From an uncultured Alphaproteobacteria bacterium (GTDB lineage Bacteria; Pseudomonadota; Alphaproteobacteria; Rs-D84; CACZYB01), in contig CAKQHZ010000002.1 in assembly GCA_934246625.1 (NCBI GenBank), positions 185,112 to 217,111 of the forward strand: a stretch of 32,000 nt of DNA, read 5' to 3'. The first letter of the stretch is position 1; each line of letters opens with the position of its first letter. A program made the translations under genes and the position numbers. The notes under the pieces were generated by a model that saw nothing but the letters and a program-made list of their open reading frames with translations, ran no database searches and was not told the DNA's origin. This document shows positions 2,823 through 27,353 of the stretch, piece after piece.

Positions 2823-3506
2823 ATGAATGTGTATTGTTCTTTTGATAACAAAATTGTAAAAAATTTTGATAAGGAATTGTTCCTTAAAATTGAAAATTAT
2901 CTTCTTTTGTCTGGTGTTGCATCGGATAAAGAAGATTTTTCAGTTATTAAAGAGCGACTTGTTAATCCTCCTCATCTTTTGCCAGAAGAGTTTGCATACG
3001 AAGTTTTTTATGTGATACTTGCAAGTGGGTTTAAGCAAAAAATTGCAAAGGAAAAATTTCTTCAAATAAAATCATTTATTGAAAATGGTGGTTGTGTTTT
3101 GCCCGAAAATTTGCTTGTGATTTTTGGTAATAAAAATAAAATCAATGCCATTTGTCGTGTGTGGAATAATAGGGATAATTATTGTAATAATTTTTATTTG
3201 CAACCGGATATTGATTCAAAGATGAAGTATTTGGCGACTTTGCCACACATTGGTGAAATTACAAAAAATCATTTGGCACGAAATCTTGGTATAAATCAGG
3301 TAAAGTATGATGTGTGGATACAAAGACTCGGAATTGCATTATATGGTGATGATACTATGGTCGATGGTTTTCCTTTATCCGATTGTGTAAAATGTGCTTG
3401 TGATAAAATGTTTGATAAACTTGTTTGTGATACAAAACTTCCTCGCGGATATATTGATGTTGTGTTGTGGAAGGCGTGTCAAATAGGGGTACTTTTCTTT
3501 AAGTAA
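2823..3506 (+). CDS. hypothetical protein with a possible helix-hairpin-helix (HhH-GPD-like) segment
   Basis: 227-aa ORF placed tightly after waaA. The segment LATLPHIGEITKNHLARNLGINQVKYDVWIQRLG resembles the LPGVGxKTA...vDtHv.Rv region of HhH-GPD glycosylases by eye only. Function is not established. Confidence 0.45.
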   Translation: MNVYCSFDNKIVKNFDKELFLKIENYLLLSGVASDKEDFSVIKERLVNPPHLLPEEFAYEVFYVILASGFKQKIAKEKFLQIKSFIENGGCVLPENLLVIFGNKNKINAICRVWNNRDNYCNNFYLQPDIDSKMKYLATLPHIGEITKNHLARNLGINQVKYDVWIQRLGIALYGDDTMVDGFPLSDCVKCACDKMFDKLVCDTKLPRGYIDVVLWKACQIGVLFFK

Positions 3507-4579: not shown

Positions 4580-5461
4580 ATGAAGCGTTTTGGCAAAGTT
4601 TTTGCACGATTTATTTGTGTCTTTATTTTAAATAAAAATTTACGAAGAAGGGTTCGTTGGATATTGGACCCTTGTTCTCCACCAAATTTGATAAAATATT
4701 TTGGGAAAAAGTATTTGCCGAAAGTTCAAATTTCAAAAAAATTTAATTGTGGGGAAAAATCAGATTATATTTTTCAATGTTGGCTTCAAGGGTATGATAA
4801 TGCTCCAAATATTGTAAAAAATTGTATTGATAGTGTGGAAAAATTTAAGGGGCATAGAAAACATATTATTATTACAAATGAAAATCTTTCTGATTGGGTG
4901 AATATACCACAATTTATTTTGGACAAGTATAAAAATGGTGAAATAGGTCATGCTCATTTTGCAGATATTTTGCGACTTTATTTACTTTCACAATATGGTG
5001 GGTATTGGATTGATACGACTTGTTTAATGACAGATAATATTCCTGATGTTATTGAGAATAGTAATTTCTTTATGTTCCACTCTTCTGGAAAATGGGAGTG
5101 GACATTGATAAATAATTGTTTTATCCGTTCGTATAAGGAAAATAGTTTTATTAACTCTTGGCGTGATATGTTGACTGAATATTGGAGGGGTGAAAATAGG
5201 GCGTTGGATTATTTCTTTTGCCATTTGCTTTTCAGGACATTGCTTTTGAATCCAATGTTGAAATCTGAATTCGATAAAATGCCAATTATTTCACAAGAGG
5301 AGATTCACAAACTTGCTTTTTGTTTGGGAGATGAGTTAAATCAAAAACAAATTGATGAGGTTTGTAAAGTTTCATTTATACAAAAACTGACTTATAAATT
5401 ATCAAATGGAGAGTTTGATAATCCAAAGTCAGTTGCGTCAATATTAAATAAAAGAGATTAG
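4580..5461 (+). CDS. capsular-polysaccharide-synthesis-type glycosyltransferase (Caps_synth-like)
   Basis: 293 aa, with the ATG abutting the obg stop (TAGATG). The block QCWLQGYDNAP...HFADILRLYLLSQYGGYWIDTTCLM resembles PF05704/Gly_transf_sug-type sugar transferases. Confidence 0.65.
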   Translation: MKRFGKVFARFICVFILNKNLRRRVRWILDPCSPPNLIKYFGKKYLPKVQISKKFNCGEKSDYIFQCWLQGYDNAPNIVKNCIDSVEKFKGHRKHIIITNENLSDWVNIPQFILDKYKNGEIGHAHFADILRLYLLSQYGGYWIDTTCLMTDNIPDVIENSNFFMFHSSGKWEWTLINNCFIRSYKENSFINSWRDMLTEYWRGENRALDYFFCHLLFRTLLLNPMLKSEFDKMPIISQEEIHKLAFCLGDELNQKQIDEVCKVSFIQKLTYKLSNGEFDNPKSVASILNKRD

Positions 5462-6000
5462 TTAAAGCTGTCCAAACATTTTTCGATTTCGGATTTTAAT
5501 CCATCGGCTTTTGAAAGTGCGATGGCACTTGTTATTGTGGAACCAACAGATGTTGCAGTCGATGTAATATTAGTTATATTTTTAATAACTTTTGAATTAT
5601 TATTTGATGGCATTGTGTTTGCTTCACCATTATTTTTTGCATCAATTTTGCCCTTTACTGTGGTTGCAATGTTGACTGCACTTGATGCGGTTCCAACTCC
5701 TGAAATAGCGATTGTTCCCGCGGAAAGTCCAAGCATAATATTTATATTTTCATCTGAAATTCCCTGACACGCAGAACGGGATTGTTCGCGTTTTGTAAGA
5801 AGTTGGTTATATTCTTTTTCCTTTCTTTCAATTTCCTTTTGTTTATCTTTTAATTTATTATTGTATCCAGTATTTCTTGCGGTAAGACTTGTATTTTCAA
5901 TTTGTAATTTTTCAAGTTGTTTTGTAAGTTCTTCGGCAGTTTGTGAAAATGCAGGAGATGTTAACATAGTCATAATAAGTATTGTTAAAAATTTTTTCAT
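5458..6000 (-). CDS. secreted coiled-coil protein with two Gly/Ala/Ser/Thr-rich helices and two conserved Cys (paralog 1)
   Basis: Listed ORF 5458..6018. I prefer the ATG at 6000 because AAAGGA lies 9 nt upstream of it and downstream of the 6018 ATG. Signal peptide MKKFLTILIMTMLTSPAFSQ, heptad-like region, then SRSAC...AGTIAISGVGTASSAV...TSVGSTITSAIAL...EKCLDSFN. No family recognised. Confidence 0.7.
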   Translation of the reverse strand: MKKFLTILIMTMLTSPAFSQTAEELTKQLEKLQIENTSLTARNTGYNNKLKDKQKEIERKEKEYNQLLTKREQSRSACQGISDENINIMLGLSAGTIAISGVGTASSAVNIATTVKGKIDAKNNGEANTMPSNNNSKVIKNITNITSTATSVGSTITSAIALSKADGLKSEIEKCLDSFN

Positions 6001-6833
6001 TAGAATGATCCTTTGCAATCTTTTACTTGTTGAGCGATTGTGTTTATAAGGGCGGTTGCAACACTTGAACTTATTGCTGTTCCAGCAGATGCAACTGTGC
6101 CAACGATTGTTGAAACATTTGAAACGGTTTCAAGGACGTTGTTTGTTTTTTGTTGCTTTGCCCATTTTTCATCTTTATTTTTTGTAGTAGTTTTTTTGTT
6201 ATCAGAATTGGTTGCACAACCTCCAGCAGAAGGTCTATTATCCCCATCAATAGTTGCAAATTTATTTTGGTTTTTAAGTTGGTCTTTTTCATATTTTTTA
6301 TTAAATTGTTCTTCGTTTTTTTGTAAAAATGAAGTCGTTGTTGCGGTTGCATGTGCAAGTGTTCCAACTCCAGATGCACTGACTGTACCAATTAGCCAGC
6401 CCTTTATTTCATCAATTTTTTTAGGGAGTATATTTCTGCAAGTGCTTTTTGATTTATTTTGTTGTGTTTCTAAATTTGAAAAATTTTCTTCTATATCAGA
6501 AAGTTTTTTTGTAAGGTCATTAAACTTTGTTTGTTTTTCCTTTATTTCATTATTTAACACTGTATTTTGTGTAGTCAAAGTTGCAATTTTTTGTTGCATT
6601 TCTTCGACGGATTCTGTCGGTTCGGAAGAGGTTTCTACTACTTCGGGTTCTTGGATTTTTACATAAGTTTCTTCTGGTAGTTCAACTGGCTGTGTAGATT
6701 TTGTGGGTGTGGTTGCACGGATAATATTTTTTCTTTGTGGACCATTTTTGGTTGCTTGGCGTTTTCTTGCTCCTTCAACTGAATTTGCAAGTATTACAAT
6801 ACCTAGCAAAAAGATGCTGATTTTTTTATTCAT
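6000..6833 (-). CDS. secreted coiled-coil protein with two Gly/Ala/Ser/Thr-rich helices and two conserved Cys (paralog 2)
   Basis: 277 aa with AGAGGAG RBS. Signal peptide MNKKISIFLLGIVILANSVEG, Pro/Glu/Thr-rich linker, coiled coil, SKSTC...IGTVSASGVGTLAHA...STIVGTVASAGTAISSSVATAL...KDCKGSF. The TAA stop overlaps the paralog-1 ATG (TAATG at 5998-6002). Confidence 0.7.
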   Translation of the reverse strand: MNKKISIFLLGIVILANSVEGARKRQATKNGPQRKNIIRATTPTKSTQPVELPEETYVKIQEPEVVETSSEPTESVEEMQQKIATLTTQNTVLNNEIKEKQTKFNDLTKKLSDIEENFSNLETQQNKSKSTCRNILPKKIDEIKGWLIGTVSASGVGTLAHATATTTSFLQKNEEQFNKKYEKDQLKNQNKFATIDGDNRPSAGGCATNSDNKKTTTKNKDEKWAKQQKTNNVLETVSNVSTIVGTVASAGTAISSSVATALINTIAQQVKDCKGSF

Positions 6834-13380: not shown

Positions 13381-15183
13381 ATGTTAGATTTGAAAAAAAA
13401 TGATGTGATGTCTGTGTATTATGATAATTCAAAGTATAATTTGTCATCAATACTTCTTCCATTTAAGGGAATGATAAGACGTATTTTTGGACTTTCATTT
13501 TTAATAAATGTTTTAAGTGTTTTGATACCTTTGTGTATTATGTATTTGATTGATGGAAAGTTTAATTTATCACTTGATTCAAATGGACTTTTTAACATTG
13601 TGTTTTTGACATCTGTGCTTGGGTTTAACTTTTTATTTCGTTATATTCGTGCGGGTATGATAAATTATGTTTTGTTAAATATTGATAATAATATTTGCAA
13701 AAATATTTTGGATAAGGTTTTTAAATTACCAGCAAGGAAAATGGAAAAAAAGAAAGAAGCCTTTTGGACAACTTTGTTTGCGGATATTGATGTTATTCGA
13801 AATGGTCTTTCTGGTTCCTATATTGTGAATATTACAGATATTCCTTTTGTGCTTTTGTTTATTGGTGTGATTGGAATTTTGCTTGGTAAATATTTCTTTG
13901 TCATTCTTTTATTTTTACTTATGTATGCAATTTTTATTATGTTTGCATCTTATGTTTTGGGAATTGTTGATGATAAGGAAAAAATGGCGATAAAGGAACG
14001 TGATGAACTTATATCTGGGTCAATACATAATCTTTCATCGTTGAAAACTTTGTCTTTGACAGACAAGGTTATGAATATGTGGCATGATTATCAAAAAAGT
14101 ATAGTTGATATTACATACAAAAGAAATTATACCTTGGATATTTGTTTGGTGTTGAATTATGTTATTTTCTTTTTGGGATTGATTGTATTTTCTTTGATTG
14201 GTGTTTATGCAGTTAATTTGCATATTATGAGTATTGGAACTTTGGTTGCTGTGCTTTTACTTTTTACTTTGAATTTTTATTTGATTAACAGCTTTTTAAA
14301 ATATCTTCCTCAATATTTTAAATTTATCAATTCTATTGAACGTTTAAGTCAAGTTATGGCGGAACAAGTTGATGCCCTTAAAACCGAAGAGGTGGAGGAT
14401 ATTACTCTTGGTAATTTGGAACTTAAAAATGTGGTGTTGGAAGATAGTTTGAAAAACATTATTTTAAAAGATGTTAACTTTACCTTTAAAGAAGGAAGTG
14501 TTTATGTTGTGCGTGGTAAGAATACTTTTGATACATCTTTATTTTTAAAAAGTTTGATTGGTGCATATGATATTTCAAATGGTGAAATACTTTTTGACAG
14601 ATATGATGTTGCGAACCTTAAGGCTGAAAGTCTTAAAAACTATATACACTATCTTGGGGTAAATTATTTTATCATTGAAGGAACGGTGAAAGAAAATTTG
14701 AATTGCTTTTTGAATGAAAGCGATACTTCCTTTGCTGGATTTGTTGATTATAAAAAGGTTGCGAAAATGTTCGGCCTTGATGAAATAATTGCAAAACTTC
14801 CAAATGGATATAATACGATTATTGATAGTAAAACAGATTTGTTGACACAGGAGGAAATGAAACTTTTGAGTATTGCTCGTGTGTTTGTTGGTAATCCAAA
14901 GGTTATGATTTTTGACCAACCATTTTTAGGACTTAGAAAAATTTATAAGGAAAAGTTGATAAAGGCGTTTGCCGAATTTTCTTCTGATAAAATTATTATT
15001 GTTTCAACAACGGAAAAGGATATTGGAAAACGTAAAGTTATTAACATTGAAAATGAAAAAATTACAATGTTGACTTCTGATACTTTTGATGAGGCTTTGA
15101 TGGATATAAATGCCAAAATCGAAGAAGAAGATGCAACAGAAAATCGTGCATTGTTTAGACGAATTTTTAGGAAGAAAGACTGA
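13381..15183 (+). CDS. T1SS/PrtD-HlyB-type ABC exporter (TMD-NBD fusion) with degenerate nucleotide-binding motifs
   Basis: 600 aa. N-terminus LLPFKGMIRRIFGLSFLINVLSVLIPLCIMYLIDG and about 6 TM helices. The NBD fold is recognisable (LPNGYNTIID...LSIARVFVGNPKVMIFDQP), but the Walker A, Q-loop, signature, Walker B Glu and H-loop positions are all substituted. Confidence 0.8.
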   Translation: MLDLKKNDVMSVYYDNSKYNLSSILLPFKGMIRRIFGLSFLINVLSVLIPLCIMYLIDGKFNLSLDSNGLFNIVFLTSVLGFNFLFRYIRAGMINYVLLNIDNNICKNILDKVFKLPARKMEKKKEAFWTTLFADIDVIRNGLSGSYIVNITDIPFVLLFIGVIGILLGKYFFVILLFLLMYAIFIMFASYVLGIVDDKEKMAIKERDELISGSIHNLSSLKTLSLTDKVMNMWHDYQKSIVDITYKRNYTLDICLVLNYVIFFLGLIVFSLIGVYAVNLHIMSIGTLVAVLLLFTLNFYLINSFLKYLPQYFKFINSIERLSQVMAEQVDALKTEEVEDITLGNLELKNVVLEDSLKNIILKDVNFTFKEGSVYVVRGKNTFDTSLFLKSLIGAYDISNGEILFDRYDVANLKAESLKNYIHYLGVNYFIIEGTVKENLNCFLNESDTSFAGFVDYKKVAKMFGLDEIIAKLPNGYNTIIDSKTDLLTQEEMKLLSIARVFVGNPKVMIFDQPFLGLRKIYKEKLIKAFAEFSSDKIIIVSTTEKDIGKRKVINIENEKITMLTSDTFDEALMDINAKIEEEDATENRALFRRIFRKKD

Positions 15184-15836
15184 TGAAAAAAAATATTTTA
15201 ATATCTGCAAGTTTAACATCAACTGATTATTTTGATATAGAAAAAACTATTGCTTTGGTAAATAGCTCTTCTGTGGATAGGATTCATTTTGATGTTATGG
15301 ACGGTGTATTTGTGCCAAATATTACCTATGGTCCAGATTTTATTTCATCGGTTAAATTACACACAAAAAAATTTTTTGATGTGCATCTTATGATTATCAA
15401 TCCTTTGTCCTATATTGAAAGATTTGTTGATGCTGGTGCAGATTTGATAAGCGTGCATATTGAGGCAAAAAATACTATGAAGTCGATAAAACTTATTAAA
15501 TCTTTTGGTGTGAAGGCAGGGATTGTTATCAATCCAAAGACCAGTTATAAAAAGGTTTTGAAGTATTTGGATTTTGTTGATGAAGTTATGGTGATGAGTG
15601 TTGAACCTGGGTTTGGTGGGCAAAAATTTATTGTTGATGTTGTGCCAAAAATTCAAAAAATTTCACAAATTATAAAAAGTAAAGGTAAAAAAATTTTGTT
15701 GCAAGTTGATGGTGGAATCAATTTTGAAACGGGTAAACTTGTTATTGATAGTGGTGTTAATTCTTTGGTTGTTGGAAGTTTTTTATTTAATCAAAAAAAT
15801 TTTGATAAAACAGTTCTTAAATTAAAAAGTTTATAA
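15183..15836 (+). CDS. rpe: ribulose-phosphate 3-epimerase
   Basis: 217 aa. Motifs HFDVMDGVFVPNITYGP, DVHLMI, MSVEPGFGGQKF and VDGGIN. Its start overlaps the ABC gene stop (TGATG). Confidence 0.95.
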   Translation: MKKNILISASLTSTDYFDIEKTIALVNSSSVDRIHFDVMDGVFVPNITYGPDFISSVKLHTKKFFDVHLMIINPLSYIERFVDAGADLISVHIEAKNTMKSIKLIKSFGVKAGIVINPKTSYKKVLKYLDFVDEVMVMSVEPGFGGQKFIVDVVPKIQKISQIIKSKGKKILLQVDGGINFETGKLVIDSGVNSLVVGSFLFNQKNFDKTVLKLKSL

Positions 15837-15848
15837 TCTATATTTTTA

Positions 15849-15877
15849 TTTACAAAAATTTAATTATGTATTAAGAT
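15849..15877 (+). promoter_or_regulatory. candidate sigma70 promoter driving the structured RNA and Cys-rich gene
   Basis: TTTACA (15849-15854), 17-nt spacer, TAAGAT (15872-15877), just after the rpe stop. This would place a transcription start near 15884. Confidence 0.4.
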
Positions 15878-15909
15878 GAAATTAGGTTTGGAAGTTATTC
15901 TGAACTTAG

Positions 15910-16100
15910 TGTCCTTAATGGATACGGGATTGTCGAAGGTCCTTTATAGTCTGCGTATAACGCAATGTTATATGGTAAATGCCCCCGCCTTTAGTGGGGA
16001 GCCCTTGATGTATGTTCAGAGGATATATCTTTATGTCCTTAAAGATCTTGTGGAATCATTTCAGACTATATGATTTTCGAACTCCCCGCCGTTAAGGATA
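15910..16100 (+). ncRNA. candidate structured RNA (class unknown; possibly a 6S-like RNA or a long cis-regulatory leader of the downstream gene)
   Basis: Visibly GC-enriched relative to its flanks. The 5' arm 15910-15953 pairs with the 3' arm 16062-16100 in four near-contiguous helices: 15910-21/16089-100 (12 bp), 15925-28/16085-88 (4 bp), 15933-41/16072-80 (9 bp) and 15945-53/16062-70 (9 bp). Four G-U pairs would be A-C mismatches on the other strand, which favours the + strand. The apical region of about 108 nt holds hairpins at 15981-16002 and 16027-16046. Confidence 0.45.
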
Positions 16101-16149
16101 AATGGGAAAAATTTTTGTGTTTTTGCACAAAATAAAGGGGAAAAAGAAC

Positions 16150-16518
16150 ATGAACAAGAAGTTATCAATATTGGTATCTACATTTTTATGTGTAGCGTTA
16201 TCATCTAATGTAAAATCAGAAACATTAATAGAGTCATTACAAAGGTATTGTGTGCCAACTGCTGAAGTTTGCGGAACTGTGGCAAGGGCAACATACAACA
16301 CATCGGAAAGTGCTTGCGAGTGTTCGGCTTGCGGAATGTATTATGATAAAACTTCCAGAAGTTGTCAGACTTGTCCAGAGGGAACTTATGTGAACAACAG
16401 ATACTCCACAGAGTGCATAAGGCCAGATTGTGGCATAGGCAATTATGGAGTTGTTGAAACTGGCAAAACCGATTGTGGAATAGGATTTTACAAAGTAGCT
16501 TTATCCAGTTGTAAATAG
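16150..16518 (+). CDS. small secreted cysteine-rich protein (TNFR/ephrin-receptor-like CxxCPxGTY module)
   Basis: Listed ORF 16102..16518. The ATG at 16150 has an AAGGGG RBS 9 nt upstream and yields signal peptide MNKKLSILVSTFLCVALSSNVKS. The mature part has 11 Cys, including CECSACGMYYDKTSRSCQTCPEGTYVNN...EC and the duplicated DCGIG(N/F)Y. Confidence 0.7.
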   Translation: MNKKLSILVSTFLCVALSSNVKSETLIESLQRYCVPTAEVCGTVARATYNTSESACECSACGMYYDKTSRSCQTCPEGTYVNNRYSTECIRPDCGIGNYGVVETGKTDCGIGFYKVALSSCK

Positions 16519-16524
16519 GAGATA

Positions 16525-16567
16525 TGGGAGGAGGTATTTTCTTATGGTTTTTGCTTCCTCCCTCCCA
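16525..16567 (+). other. GC-rich stem-loop just after the Cys-rich gene stop (possible terminator or SD-sequestering hairpin)
   Basis: TGGGAGGAGG (16525-16534) pairs with CCTCCCTCCCA (16557-16567) with one bulged C and a 22-nt loop. There is no clear U-tract afterwards, so it is not a canonical intrinsic terminator. Confidence 0.4.
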
Positions 16568-16600
16568 AAAGATAAGATGAGGTGTTTAATGAGAAAAAGA

Positions 16601-16667
16601 GTCAGCACAAAAGTACGAAGTGCAACGGTAGCCCTAAAGGGACGGAGGGCAGTTGCTTTGCTGACAT
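16601..16667 (+). other. nested GC-rich stem-loop (unknown function)
   Basis: Three nested helices: GTCAGCA (16601-07)/TGCTGAC (16661-67), GCAAC (16622-26)/GTTGC (16652-56) and GCCCT (16631-35)/AGGGC (16646-50). Confidence 0.35.
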
Positions 16668-16738
16668 ACTAAACCCTTAAAGAAAAATAAGAAAAATGGA
16701 GAAATAATGGAAAAGTTTTTAAAACTAGAACCTTATAA

Positions 16739-16774
16739 GAGCACACCCCGCAAGGGGGGGTAAGGGGTGTGCTC
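16739..16774. repeat. perfect 11-bp GC-rich inverted repeat (hairpin)
   Basis: GAGCACACCCC (16739-16749) and GGGGTGTGCTC (16764-16774) flank GCAAGGGGGGGTAA. An alternative inner CCCC-GCAA-GGGG tetraloop hairpin is possible. Confidence 0.5.
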
Positions 16775-16775
16775 G

Positions 16776-16799
16776 GTAAAATTGATGTATCAATTTTAC
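16776..16799. promoter_or_regulatory. perfect 24-bp palindrome, candidate operator overlapping a putative -35 of the second Cys-rich gene
   Basis: GTAAAATTGAT gt ATCAATTTTAC: 11-bp arms with a 2-nt centre. Its right arm overlaps TTTACA (16795-16800), which lies 18 nt upstream of TAATAT (16819-16824). The gene ATG is at 16854. Confidence 0.35.
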
Positions 16800-16853
16800 A
16801 TACATTAAAATTAAAAACTAATATTAACAAACTAAACTGAAAGGTAAAATAAA

Positions 16854-17573
16854 ATGGGAAAAATGAAAAATATGAACTTATTGTTGGTAATGACAACTTT
16901 GCCAATGACTGCAAAAGCCGATCTTTTTAAATGTATGGCTTGTACTAATAAACCTGCTAACGCTCACTATACATCCGGCGGAACCAATACCTCCAATTGC
17001 TCTTGGTCTTGCGATAGCGGATATACTAAAAATGATAATTTATGCTGTGCAAATAAACCTGATAATTCTTATTATTACTCCAATAATTGTGGTTGGAATT
17101 GTAATAGCGGGTATGCATCTTGTAATAGTCGTTGTATTAAAGATGAAAGAATTGCGAATTCATCATACAATTCAAGTTGTGAGCTAGAATGTAATAAAGG
17201 ATATAAACCTGTTTATACAACAACTGGTGGAGGTTGTTCATTTACTGTGAAGACTTTATCTGAGTGTAAAGTTGATCCTTGGGTTCACTGTGCGACAACA
17301 GCTAATGCTATATATATTCAATTTACTCATACTACTGAATATGGTGAATCATGTGCTAGCTCACAAAGAAAATATTATTCTGCGGGAACTTCATTTAATC
17401 CTGTTTTTAGAAGTTGGGAAAAAGGTAGGTGTGCTTATGTGATGTTTAGAATATATAAAACATCAGATCAAACACTTTTAAAAACAGTATCAGTCAGCGT
17501 TTTCAAGACACAATTTGATTATGACCAAAGATATATTTATTGTGATGGAAAACTTCAAAAATATACTGAATAA
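16854..17573 (+). CDS. secreted cysteine-rich repeat protein (EGF-like CxWxCxSGY repeats plus a C-terminal domain of about 110 aa)
   Basis: 239 aa with a GAAAGG RBS 9 nt upstream. Signal peptide ...MKNMNLLLVMTTLPMTAKA. Three tandem modules: KPANAHYTS..NCSWSCDSGYTKNDNLC, KPDNSYYYSNNCGWNCNSGYASCNSRC and IANSSYNSSCELECNKGYK. A terminator follows. Confidence 0.75.
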   Translation: MGKMKNMNLLLVMTTLPMTAKADLFKCMACTNKPANAHYTSGGTNTSNCSWSCDSGYTKNDNLCCANKPDNSYYYSNNCGWNCNSGYASCNSRCIKDERIANSSYNSSCELECNKGYKPVYTTTGGGCSFTVKTLSECKVDPWVHCATTANAIYIQFTHTTEYGESCASSQRKYYSAGTSFNPVFRSWEKGRCAYVMFRIYKTSDQTLLKTVSVSVFKTQFDYDQRYIYCDGKLQKYTE

Positions 17574-17576
17574 AAA

Positions 17577-17601
17577 AGAAAAGGGGTTTTGCCCCTTTTT
17601 T
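17577..17601. terminator. bidirectional rho-independent terminator between the convergent Cys-rich gene and epmA
   Basis: GAAAAGGGG ttttg CCCCTTTTTTTT: a GC stem flanked by an A-run on one side and a T-run on the other, so it reads as stem plus U-tract on both strands. Confidence 0.8.
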
Positions 17602-18660
17602 TTATAGTGTTGGAATTTCGGTCCAAAGAATATCCTTTATATCATTTGCACCAGTTGAAAGCATTATTAAGCGGTCAATTCCCATTGCAATGCCAGTGGC
17701 TGGGTCCATATTTTCTATGGCTTCGATAAAACTTTCATCAATAGGATATGTTATGCCGTATAATTCCTTTTTTGTTTGCATATCGTGTTCAAAGCGAGCA
17801 CGTTGGATTTTTGCATCGGTTAGTTCGGTGAATGCATTTGCAAGTTCAACTCCACAAACATAAAGTTCGAATCGTTCAGCAATATTTTTATTGGTATCCT
17901 TTGCCTTTGAAAGGGCAGCTTGATGAATTGGATATTCATAAAGGATTGTTGGTTTTTCACAGCCAAGATTTGGTTCAATATATTCGAACATAAGTTTTTC
18001 GTATATGTCGTCCCATGTATCAATTTGTGATACGTTGATGTTTAGTGATTTTGCCTTTTCTTCCAATAAATGTTTTGATGGGTTTTCTGGATTATCTATT
18101 GTTGCGAGTATATCAAAGTGGCAAAATTTTTCAAATGCTTCCTTTACAGTTAATTTTTCCATACCATTAAATGGAGAACATTTTTTACCATTGTGTTCAA
18201 AAAATTCTTTGCCGATTGATGATAATGCGGATTTTAAAATTTTTTCGCAATCGTCCATAAGTTTTGTATAGTCGTAATGTAATCTATACCATTCTAACAT
18301 TGTGAATTCAGGATAGTGTGTAGGAGATACAATTTCGTTTCTGAAGGTATGAGTAAATTGATAGATATTTTCCATACCGAAACTTAGCAATTTTTTCATT
18401 GCGAATTCAGGTGATGTATGAAGGTATAAAGTTTTTGGGTTTGTGCCAGTTATGTCCAAAAATTTTGTTTCAAATGCGGTAAGGTGGACTTCCATTCCTG
18501 GGCAATATTGAAGGATAGGGGTGTCAACTTCGGTAAAAGATTCTGTTGAAAAAAATTTTTTGATTGCGTTTATGATTTTGTTTCGCATCAAAAGAAAAGG
18601 AAGTTTCCTTTTGAAAACTTCCCTTGCTTTGTATGTATGTAAATTATTATTTTGCATCAT
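17602..18660 (-). CDS. epmA: EF-P (R)-beta-lysine ligase (PoxA/GenX, truncated class II LysRS paralog)
   Basis: By-eye alignment to E. coli EpmA: FTEVDTPIL, TSPEFAMKKLL, FRNE...HYPEFTMLEWY, ERFELYVCGVELANAFTELTD, GIAMGIDRLIML. The listed ORF extends to 18795, but those 45 low-complexity codons overlap rplY. The ATGs at 18660/18657 fit the family N-terminus. Confidence 0.88.
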   Translation of the reverse strand: MMQNNNLHTYKAREVFKRKLPFLLMRNKIINAIKKFFSTESFTEVDTPILQYCPGMEVHLTAFETKFLDITGTNPKTLYLHTSPEFAMKKLLSFGMENIYQFTHTFRNEIVSPTHYPEFTMLEWYRLHYDYTKLMDDCEKILKSALSSIGKEFFEHNGKKCSPFNGMEKLTVKEAFEKFCHFDILATIDNPENPSKHLLEEKAKSLNINVSQIDTWDDIYEKLMFEYIEPNLGCEKPTILYEYPIHQAALSKAKDTNKNIAERFELYVCGVELANAFTELTDAKIQRARFEHDMQTKKELYGITYPIDESFIEAIENMDPATGIAMGIDRLIMLSTGANDIKDILWTEIPTL

Positions 18661-19516: not shown

Positions 19517-20227
19517 ATGGAAATTATAAATAGCTTTAATAAAAACTTTGAAAATGAATGTTCTTCAAAAAAGAAGAAACTTTTTTATGATAAGGAGGCT
19601 TTTAAAAAAGCTCTTAGAAATAAAAAAATTATGGGAAATCTTCTTCTTGCTTCTGTTCTTGTTGGTTGGTTTTCTTACTCATTTACTTCAAATCGTATTG
19701 CCGAAAAAAGAAGAATTGCTGATTTTGCGATGATTCAAGGGGTGGCTCTTGATGAACCTCATATTTTTACAAGAACTTTTGAAAATGGTTCTTTTGTTGA
19801 GGCAAAATATACAAATGCTTTTGATTATGTGAATGGATATGGTGCTATTTTAGATTCTTATGTGCCTGTGGATATAAATGGTGATAATGAAAAAGATTTA
19901 GATTTACATATCGTTGTGAAAACACGTTATGATAAAATTTCTCCTAATCAAATGTTTGCTTTGACTAATATCAAAAGTGGGTCAAAGTTGGTTTTGGAAG
20001 GCAAAATTATAAAAGATGAATTTGGTCGTCCAGTAAATGTTGTTTATCCTAAAAATGGAACAGGAGTAAACAAAAGTGGGGCTGTCGTTGTTGATAAAGA
20101 ACGTGGTCCCGATTATATAGATATGAAAAATTTGCTTTCTATTGATAATTGTAAAATGAAAAATACGTTGAATAAGAATAATCAAAAAATATTTGATGAA
20201 AACTTTAAACGTGTTTATTCACGATAA
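19517..20227 (+). CDS. hypothetical membrane-anchored protein
   Basis: 236 aa. Basic N-terminus, one TM helix (LLLASVLVGWFSYSFTS) and a soluble domain of about 170 aa with no motif I recognise. It has its own promoter and terminator. Confidence 0.6.
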   Translation: MEIINSFNKNFENECSSKKKKLFYDKEAFKKALRNKKIMGNLLLASVLVGWFSYSFTSNRIAEKRRIADFAMIQGVALDEPHIFTRTFENGSFVEAKYTNAFDYVNGYGAILDSYVPVDINGDNEKDLDLHIVVKTRYDKISPNQMFALTNIKSGSKLVLEGKIIKDEFGRPVNVVYPKNGTGVNKSGAVVVDKERGPDYIDMKNLLSIDNCKMKNTLNKNNQKIFDENFKRVYSR

Positions 20228-26507: not shown

Positions 26508-27353
26508 ATGAATTGGCTTTATTCTATCATGGGGTTTGTATGTTTTTTAAGTGTTTTTTGGGGTGTTTGGAGTAGCAAATATTTCCTTTCTAGCCCTAAT
26601 TTCCAAGGAGTCGGTGGAATCCTTCCTCAAGATATGGCTTATATGATTTTTGCTGTGATTATTCCTATTATTTTATTGTTGTTTGTTGGGATATTTTTAT
26701 TTGTGGCGATTTCGAATCATACAAATAAAAATGTTTTGGTAAGTTTGCTTAATGGTAATAAATCACAAATGTCATCACTTCAAATCCTTTGTAAGTCATT
26801 GATAGAAGTAAGAAAACTTGGTTTTACGAATCAATTTTTTCTTAATTTGCCGATTGTTTTGAATGATATTAGTGTTTCTCTTGCTGGAATCATTTCAAAA
26901 ACGGGAATGGCTTCTGATATTGTGATTTTTGATGCTCTTAATAAAGAGGGGGATAATAGGCTTTATTCAATTTGTAAAATTATTTTGGATTTAAGGGAAA
27001 GCACTCCTCATTTTGATGAAAATTTACGTCGTAAGGTTAAAAAAGACGCTGTGATTGCTGGAAATATTGGAATTTTTTCTTCTAAATACAATAAATTATT
27101 AAAAGTCCTTAAAAATTATGATTTAGATGGCTTTATTTATTCTTTGATAGAAGAAGGTGAGCTTGGTAAAGTGCATAATATTCTTTCATCAGCAATTTAT
27201 TCATCTGAAATTCCTGTAAAATCAATGGAAATAGAAGAAAATATGGATAGTGTTTTTGAAGAGGTTGAGGAAAAGGAAGAAACAAGAGCAAAAGCAAATA
27301 AAATCAATCTTGAAGAGATTATGAAATTTGTTGATGAGGAAAGTGAAGAATAA
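26508..27353 (+). CDS. hypothetical two-TM membrane protein with an acidic C-terminal tail
   Basis: 281 aa with a strong RBS. Two N-terminal TM helices (SIMGFVCFLSVFWGVW; MIFAVIIPIILLLFVGIFLFVAI), a helical soluble domain of about 170 aa, and a Glu-rich tail (EEVEEKEE...DEESEE). No family recognised. Confidence 0.6.
   Translation: MNWLYSIMGFVCFLSVFWGVWSSKYFLSSPNFQGVGGILPQDMAYMIFAVIIPIILLLFVGIFLFVAISNHTNKNVLVSLLNGNKSQMSSLQILCKSLIEVRKLGFTNQFFLNLPIVLNDISVSLAGIISKTGMASDIVIFDALNKEGDNRLYSICKIILDLRESTPHFDENLRRKVKKDAVIAGNIGIFSSKYNKLLKVLKNYDLDGFIYSLIEEGELGKVHNILSSAIYSSEIPVKSMEIEENMDSVFEEVEEKEETRAKANKINLEEIMKFVDEESEE

Follow-up and report, generated by a model that had tools for sequence, protein, structure and literature searches.

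A strain-variable cassette for two cysteine-rich proteins between rpe and epmA of an uncultured alphaproteobacterium

What do two small genes for unusually cysteine-rich proteins do between rpe (15183-15836) and the convergent gene epmA (17602-18660; both NCBIfam assignments) of an uncultured alphaproteobacterium? The two genes, ORF1 (gene A) and ORF2 (gene B), lie in a 32-kb stretch of DNA, hereafter the window, by which we mean the whole stretch that was analysed and to whose positions all coordinates refer. Cysteine makes up 9.8% of the ORF1 protein (12/122 residues) and 7.5% of the ORF2 protein (18/239), against a mean of 1.17% in the 29 other open reading frames of the window. An earlier reading of the sequence alone (the sequence-only reading) had proposed that the pair forms an accessory islet. 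Synteny comparison bore this out and revealed that the islet is in fact a cassette that varies between strains. We consider it somewhat better than an even chance (a probability of roughly 55%) that 15909-17599 is a contingency-type cassette, which would encode two exported, disulfide-stabilised recognition proteins.

Cassette replacement and positive selection

Seven metagenome contigs have flanks that are 99.0–99.4% identical to the window, and between these flanks three forms of the cassette are found. By blastn breakpoints and alignment, the strain-variable cassette spans 16158-17598 (no strand assigned). The whole interval is replaced in L087 and L088, while in L001 and L091-L093 only the sub-interval 17026-17598, from ORF2 codon 58 to the terminator, is replaced. 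The three forms are as follows.

Type I (window and L002): gene A of form A1; gene B in a form of 239/236 residues.
Type II (L001 and L091-L093): gene A of form A1 (99% identical); gene B the same through codon 57, then with an unrelated 3' part, 288-294 residues long with a glycine-rich region; a 127-bp insertion upstream.
Type III (L087 and L088): gene A of form A2, 41% identical; an unrelated gene B of 214 residues.

Mosaics between the forms also occur: P0014 joins A2 and A1 halves, and P0012 carries a type III signal peptide on a type II body. From the three cassette forms and these mosaics, recombination is deduced to be anchored in the leader and the beginning of gene A, in module 1 of gene B and at the end towards epmA.

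In addition to being replaced, ORF2 alleles evolve under positive selection. In four type II alleles, of 288 residues, the ratio of nonsynonymous to synonymous polymorphism (pN/pS), summed over pairs, was 2.40 (pN 0.058), and the window allele differs from that of L002 by nine nonsynonymous and no synonymous differences. By comparison, the flanking genes (the ABC gene, rpe, epmA and L25) had ratios of 0.07–0.20, and gene A had one of 0.42. The variable codons of ORF2 are spread through a frame that is otherwise invariant, and many of them have three alleles; N44, which sits in the module common to type I and type II alleles, is written AAT, GAT or TAT.

Several further observations concern the variable forms. 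The type II alleles (P0002-P0012, 288-296 residues; for example L001:10001-10867) contain a glycine-rich stretch, GIYMVKLRGGKGGAGYG, and similar stretches are present in the gene B partners of L082 and L085. The family Gly_rich_2 was considered for the L082 partner on the basis of a weak precomputed match and was dropped when hmmscan did not reproduce it, so that the glycine-rich heads stay unclassified. The 127-bp insertion (L001:9837-9963, the same in L091) is located at window position ~16803 and includes the GC-rich palindrome GCGAGCCGTCCGGCGCCCGAATTTATCGGGCGGCTCGC; its sequence is reminiscent of a small palindromic mobile element. Elsewhere in the window, the open reading frame 19517-20227 (236 residues, no family match, one hydrophobic segment near the N-terminus) has a pN/pS of 0.55, above that of its housekeeping neighbours. 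A phage origin of the cassette was rejected: IMG/VR held no relatives, and PHROGs and PADLOC gave no matches. The literature searched describes neither the proteins nor the leader RNA.

The anatomy of the locus is listed below; both open reading frames are present where the sequence-only reading had placed them.

15849-15877, plus strand: promoter-like sequence TTTACA-17-TAAGAT, found by consensus scan only, about 30 nucleotides before the leader RNA.
~15883-15908, plus strand: extra 5' hairpin of the leader.
15909-16090, plus strand: structured leader RNA with a multi-helix junction and conserved CGGG, GGGGWGCC, GGAATCAT and GAACWCCCCGMC.
16150-16518, plus strand: gene A (ORF1), 122 residues from ATG, with ribosome-binding site GGGGA.
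~16150-16218, plus strand: predicted signal peptide of gene A.
16219-16515, plus strand: mature cysteine-rich part of gene A.
16333-16443, plus strand: Ephrin_rec_like/TNFR-like stretch of gene A.
16526-16566, plus strand: GC-rich hairpin GGGAGGAGG...CCTCCCTCCC right after the gene A stop, kept beside homologous genes in another species (L082, L003).
16601-16665, plus strand: long stem GTCAGCACAA...GCTTTGCTGAC; in L003 and L007 the outer stem is kept and the inner part is altered yet self-complementary.
16739-16774, plus strand: hairpin GAGCACACCCC...GGGGTGTGCTC with the poly-G tract 16754-16760 in its loop.
16854-17573, plus strand: gene B (ORF2), 239 residues.
16854-16919, plus strand: predicted signal peptide of gene B.
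16920-17045, 17046-17135 and 17136-17237, plus strand: three EGF-like modules of gene B.
17238-17570, plus strand: orphan beta-rich C-terminal domain of gene B.
17579-17599, no strand assigned (program call on the minus strand): terminator-like hairpin in the convergent gap between ORF2 and epmA, palindrome AAAAGGGGTTTTGCCCCTTTT with T runs on both sides.

The higher local GC content that had been noted for this region holds weakly. ORF1 (0.385) lies above the window mean of 0.319 and the spacers reach 0.34–0.36, whereas ORF2 (0.328) is near the mean; epmA and L25 have values of 0.334 and 0.35.

Family links and recurrent pairing of the two proteins

The N-termini of both proteins resemble Sec signals, with a K-rich start and a hydrophobic core (judged by eye; Kyte-Doolittle 10-mer means 2.61 for ORF1 and 2.02 for ORF2). 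Plausible signal peptidase I sites follow VKS (before E) in ORF1 and AKA (before D) in ORF2, and this layout is kept in homologues. Neither N-terminus has a lipobox. Export by the Sec pathway is thereby predicted for both. As the sequence-only reading had described, ORF1 contains CQTCPEGTYVNN...EC and a duplicated DCGIG(N/F)Y, and ORF2 contains three (K/I)(P/A)xN(A/S)xY...CxWxCxxGY modules.

ORF1 matches the Pfam family Ephrin_rec_like (PF07699) over residues 62-98 with 18.8 bits (E=0.0014), short of the gathering cutoff of 23.1, and has no NCBIfam match. A profile search showed the gene A family to be small: 22 clusters of 107-160 residues, all unnamed, 13 of which have a precomputed PF07699 match. 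When scanned, the homologues in L004 (24.2 bits) and L005 (29.0 bits), whose source genomes are labelled Alphaproteobacteria or 'bacterium', exceed the cutoff. Membership in PF07699 is thus a property of the family, reached by transitivity and not by the window sequence alone, and the earlier assignment of ORF1 to Ephrin_rec_like/TNFR stands to that extent: by its sequence, ORF1 is a divergent copy of this family. It fits the cysteine spacing C-x2-C-P-x-G-[ST]-[YF]-x(n)-C (CQTCPEGTYVNNRYSTEC, residues 72-89). In 16 gene A members, cysteines 41, 58, 72, 75, 89, 94 and 109 are invariant, and Cys34 is missing in two only. An AF2 model of ORF1, built with the family alignment, had a pLDDT of 72.8 (above 82 for residues 21-90), and its best Foldseek matches were all cysteine-rich domains (TNFR2, 4-1BB, HVEM, RANK, CaSR, Eph), yet none of them significant (E≥0.13).

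ORF2 gave no match in Pfam (even at E≤10), NCBIfam, PADLOC or PHROGs. When 1.84 billion representatives were searched exhaustively with phmmer, 337 proteins matched it at E≤1e-3, some of them with up to 33 repeats (P0015 is 4255 residues long), so the module motifs are not a chance resemblance. Remote matches fall solely within the first ~120 mature residues, that is, within the three modules. Relatives of the modules do exceed Pfam cutoffs: P0021 for cEGF (32.2 vs 26.6 bits), P0047 for EGF_MSP1_1 (42.5 vs 27) and P0020 for TNFR_c6 (45.7 vs 29.4). Against the PDB, single ORF1 and ORF2 sequences yielded nothing significant, while a profile of 19 modules had as its best match 1n1i, EGF domain 1 of Plasmodium MSP1 (E=1.4e-4, positions 1-32/32). 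Each module has three to four cysteines, not the six (three disulfides) of canonical EGF, and the likeness is to the C-terminal half of EGF only. For this reason, the modules are, on sequence, truncated EGF-like units, whose closest solved structure is an MSP1-type EGF-like domain. Their proposed resemblance to EGF therefore finds a basis in relatives and profile, although ORF2 itself has no Pfam match.

The modules had also been called unusual in bacteria, which is contradicted by their distribution. They are carried by uncultured gut Alphaproteobacteria (rumen RGIG metagenome-assembled genomes, Candidatus Enterousia and termite-gut 'Rickettsiales') as well as by Gracilibacteria/SR1 and Saccharibacteria of the candidate phyla radiation (CPR), Elusimicrobia, Bdellovibrio and Myxococcus. 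In a separate observation, P0017 (870 residues), one of the proteins from the exhaustive search, has tandem cysteine modules, then a Pretoxin-HINT stretch (26.4 bits, cutoff 27.7) and then a C-terminal extension, so that polymorphic-toxin-like proteins, too, may use cysteine modules as their stalk.

The last 111 residues of ORF2 form the head, in which the sequence-only reading recognised no motif, and Pfam, phmmer and hhalign likewise gave no family. Exhaustive phmmer found P0001 alone, which is 96% identical and represents the same allele from another sample. Neither BLASTP nor hhalign found anything significant between this C-terminus and those of other alleles and paralogues. By these searches, the head is without relatives outside the species. 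Unrelated heads do share a 12-residue end motif, [YF]-x-[IVY]-C-x-[DG]-K-[LI], whose core is also written Y-x-C-x-[DG]-K-L (ORF2 17535-17570, P0023, P0025, P0031, L004:144-863 and L005:127-765; hhalign not significant). This motif could serve for sorting or anchoring, or act as a structural clasp.

Gene A and gene B recur together. A gene A homologue followed directly by a cysteine-rich gene B with a signal peptide is found in four unrelated genomic contexts: between rpe and epmA in the window, at the ribosomal L28/L33 genes (L082), at traG/rpmI (L083, from a Hadza gut sample), and beside genes for pyruvate:ferredoxin oxidoreductase and a glycosyltransferase (L085, L086, L089). All B proteins start, after the signal, with A(D/Q)L(F/I)xCxxC, and the remainder is assembled from Ephrin_rec_like repeats, NKPAN...CxWxCxxGY modules and a variety of heads. 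PF07699 is matched with 35.5 bits by the B partner in L082 and with 33.4 bits by that in L083. This recurrent gene order supports A and B being a functional pair. A connection with the neighbouring type-I-secretion-like ABC gene (13381-15183) was dismissed, because A-B pairs elsewhere lack it. The ABC gene itself encodes a permease/ATPase of 600 residues, scores far under equivalog cutoffs and stands alone between ftsA and rpe, with no membrane-fusion or outer-membrane partner in view.

Leader RNA, spacer and poly-G tract

The sequence-only reading had suspected structured-RNA-like spacers around the two genes, and folding supports structured spacers: relative to shuffled sequences the leader had a z-score of -5.2, and the A-B spacer had one of -2.9. 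In the leader, conservation and covariation add to this evidence. Its nucleotide sequence is conserved ahead of the gene A homologue in L082, a locus of a different species and a different context (E=1.4e-22), with 11 base pairs kept through two-sided changes, and it accompanies gene A into other species and contexts. A covariance model, R1, detected 10 full-length copies in the gathered loci. Among 81 metagenome stretches preselected by a 22-nt pattern of the leader's 3' end, it confirmed 56, of which 53 were full length and 52 distinct, bringing the matches to 66. In the set from gathered loci, 94% of cells were paired and 39/58 pairs showed a compensatory change; in the metagenome set the values were 95.7% and 43/57, with 434 double-change cells. 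Slid controls gave 30–57% paired. The alignments were fitted to the R1 model, which biases these covariation counts; as an independent check, minimum free energy (MFE) folds of single sequences recovered 48–94% of the consensus pairs. In Rfam 15, cmscan found no match in the window, either at gathering thresholds or at E≤10, and none at E≤1 at the motif in five other loci. On comparative sequence evidence, the leader represents a structured RNA family with good support that Rfam 15 does not contain. The position of the promoter-like sequence 15849-15877 fits a transcript of the leader and gene A; it is a consensus match and not evidence of function.

Most leader copies have a hairpin, gACCGCC...GGCGGT, with a T run, which begins inside the conserved 3' end and is followed within ~10-30 nt by a ribosome-binding site and ATG. 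A strict test for hairpin and T run was passed by 38/50 distinct metagenome copies, with the stem starting in the conserved CCCCGAC, although the initial 3 nt of this stem were dictated by the search pattern. The copies in the window and L082 end in CCCCGCC and are without this terminator. As there is no room for a separate promoter between terminator and gene, the layout is that of an attenuator or riboswitch, and the leader would regulate the gene behind it. Starting from the RNA instead of the proteins, 30/46 downstream open reading frames have a hydrophobic N-terminus and 11/46 reach at least 4% cysteine, by which a leader specific to cysteine-rich genes is ruled out; some leader-headed genes are cytoplasmic, for example one for a DNA-methylase-like protein. 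On these predictions, the leader stands before a wide range of accessory genes, most of them for exported proteins.

Examples of other copies are L082:5750-5930, L083:5726-5928, L095:2891-3090 and L139:4106-4292. Several may occur in one genome (two in L048, two in L154 and at least four in the metagenome-assembled genome RGIG4808). An open reading frame of 65 codons, 15876-16073, was called in all related contigs; since it lies inside the structured RNA and its L082 copy differs by indels, it is probably spurious.

Within the A-B spacer, the poly-G tract 16754-16760 is the sole G/C homopolymer of at least 7 in the 32 kb. The window has 7 G, L002 and L091-L093 have 8, L001 has 9, and L007, which comes from another species, has 10. 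The poly-G hairpin stands just upstream of promoter-like sites at 16782-16824. A length-polymorphic simple-sequence tract near gene B, such as characterises contingency loci, suggests phase variation.

Interpretation, rival explanations and known systems

We propose that 15909-17599 would function as a self-contained accessory expression cassette of an AT-rich diderm gut bacterium. The leader RNA would be followed by gene A, whose Sec-exported product of ~100 residues would be built as a cysteine ladder of the TNFR/ephrin-receptor-like type. The structured spacer, which contains the length-variable poly-G hairpin, would lead to gene B, also Sec-exported, in which three MSP1-type EGF-like half-modules would form a stalk and the 111 C-terminal residues a head. 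Outside the cytoplasm, A and B would act jointly as disulfide-stabilised recognition proteins, possibly in contact, with specificity set by the B head and exposed stalk residues. Strains would swap entire cassettes, or the B head alone, by homologous recombination at the conserved anchors, and positive selection would diversify B further. The likely role would be to bind a partner, host, phage or immune factor in a variable manner, or to evade it; a host- or surface-interaction role, as the sequence-only reading had suggested, is also what we infer for A and B. The window's Kdo transferase and LptA/B homologues fit a diderm envelope.

Several points weigh against this proposal. Gene A does not co-vary with the B head, the same A1 being found beside two different heads, so that gene order is what argues for cooperation of A and B. 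The differences in poly-G length could be assembly noise. The window's own ORF1 and ORF2 are both under Pfam cutoffs, and the Foldseek matches of ORF1 are not significant (best E 0.13; TM-scores 0.2–0.3). For ORF2, AF2 without an alignment gave an unusable model (pLDDT 42.6), and no alignment could be built for the C-terminus because phmmer finds P0001 alone. The signal peptides were judged by eye, and A and B have no membrane anchor, lipobox or known sorting signal that would place them at the surface.

Three other explanations must be weighed, each of which we consider less likely than the contingency cassette. The least unlikely of them, although still improbable, is that A and B are ordinary periplasmic metal or redox proteins rich in cysteine, whose variability comes from relaxed constraint at a hot spot of recombination. 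Beyond Sec, the sequences show neither an anchor nor a secretion signal, the cysteine count of mature ORF1 is odd (11), and one weak rubredoxin-like alignment was obtained (E=0.23), all of which would suit such proteins. Relaxed constraint, however, predicts a pN/pS of about 1, whereas the values seen were 2.4 and 9:0; cysteine positions and module frame are strictly kept while the residues between them vary, and the same modules build repeat proteins of up to 4255 residues, which is typical of extracellular fibres and adhesins. It is likewise doubtful that gene B encodes a small polymorphic toxin or bacteriocin, with an exporting N-terminus, a swappable toxic C-terminus and gene A as accessory or immunity factor. 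Such a toxin would account for a conserved B N-terminus joined to unrelated C-terminal domains in near-identical strains and for positive selection on B; P0017 joins the same modules to the sub-threshold Pretoxin-HINT, and small cytoplasmic open reading frames follow B at other loci (146 residues in L082, 118 in L085 and 124 in L089). Yet no allele has a toxin family in Pfam, NCBIfam, PADLOC or PHROGs, and an immunity gene would find no space in the window, where the ORF2 stop (17573) directly adjoins the terminator, with epmA next at 17602. Gene A is upstream, itself predicted to be exported, and 99% identical beside two different heads, and the variability is one of scattered point diversification, beyond domain swapping.

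The third explanation, targeting of gene B by a diversity-generating retroelement (DGR) with adenine-specific mutagenesis copied from a template repeat, was rejected as very improbable. Hypervariability limited to certain codons of an otherwise unchanging sequence, where a single site may show three or four different nucleotides, would be expected of such a target, but the mutation pattern had already largely refuted it: A runs between variable sites are invariant, the third-position A of variable codons never changes, indels are in frame, and many variable sites have no A allele. No open reading frame in the window or the syntenic contigs is annotated as a reverse transcriptase; in the window, 2823-3506, 5458-6018, 19517-20227 and 26508-27353 have no Pfam match at E≤0.001, and 6000-6833 has a sub-threshold match only.

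A wider interpretation is considerably more tentative. The leader might represent a new riboswitch-like or attenuator class that controls a mostly exported, fast-evolving accessory regulon in reduced-genome gut Alphaproteobacteria, and the cassette might be a TNFR-like plus EGF-like stalk-and-head device for variable recognition of a partner cell or host, with glycine-rich alternative heads. The cassette probably belongs to a gut alphaproteobacterium: its closest loci come from genomes labelled Alphaproteobacteria, one of them with an alpha-type tmRNA, and some related genomes belong to the order Rs-D84. Members of this order, and perhaps the lineage that carries the cassette, have reduced genomes and a proposed partner-dependent lifestyle (PMC12306168). 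The locus is a concrete candidate for partner or host recognition by Rs-D84-type gut Alphaproteobacteria: a two-gene cysteine-rich cassette with predicted Sec signals, strong positive selection and at least three interchangeable forms within one species. The leader RNA, which precedes many genes for exported proteins and usually has a terminator directly after it, is a candidate for a new RNA-based regulatory signal that is directly testable. Cysteine modules of the Ephrin/TNFR-like and EGF-like kinds are common building material for extracellular proteins of bacteria, and not a eukaryotic oddity.

Gene B is comparable to polymorphic toxins (CdiA-CT, Rhs, PT-HINT) in that its N-terminal part is conserved, its unrelated C-termini are exchanged and the breakpoint of recombination coincides with the end of a conserved module. 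Unlike them, it is very small and solely Sec-dependent, has neither a toxin domain nor an adjacent immunity gene, and shows point diversification under positive selection.

Riboswitches and attenuators may head many unrelated genes, as in the c-di-GMP-I/GEMM class. The leader shares with such classes a multi-helix junction, invariant junction nucleotides and covarying stems, as well as an intrinsic terminator in most copies, multiple copies per genome and a position mostly before exported proteins. It differs in having no Rfam 15 family, and its window copy is without a canonical terminator.

Homopolymeric tracts are known from phase-variable contingency loci, such as the poly-G loci of Campylobacter, Neisseria and Haemophilus. 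The window likewise has a unique long G tract, 7-10 in length, upstream of a hypervariable gene for a putatively exported protein. In contrast to those loci, the tract is located in a conserved hairpin loop, neither in coding sequence nor between -35 and -10.

With MSP1-type EGF domains (PF12946 EGF_MSP1_1; cEGF, PF12662; MSP1-19 in PDB 1n1i), the ORF2 modules share C-x-x-x-P-x-N-A-x-Y...W-x-C-x-x-G-Y...C, aligned end to end. They differ by their three to four cysteines, by the missing Pfam match and by being tandem stalk units widespread in bacteria.

Finally, gene A differs from the TNFR and Eph domains in being a stand-alone bacterial protein of 122 residues, with a short N-terminal helix and a sub-cutoff score. 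It resembles PF07699 and PF00020 (TNFR_c6) domains in its CxxCPxGTY...C spacing, with family members above the PF07699 cutoff, and in being small, with a signal-peptide-like N-terminus and no predicted membrane anchor. By analogy, its functional counterparts may be the soluble TNFR decoys of poxviruses.

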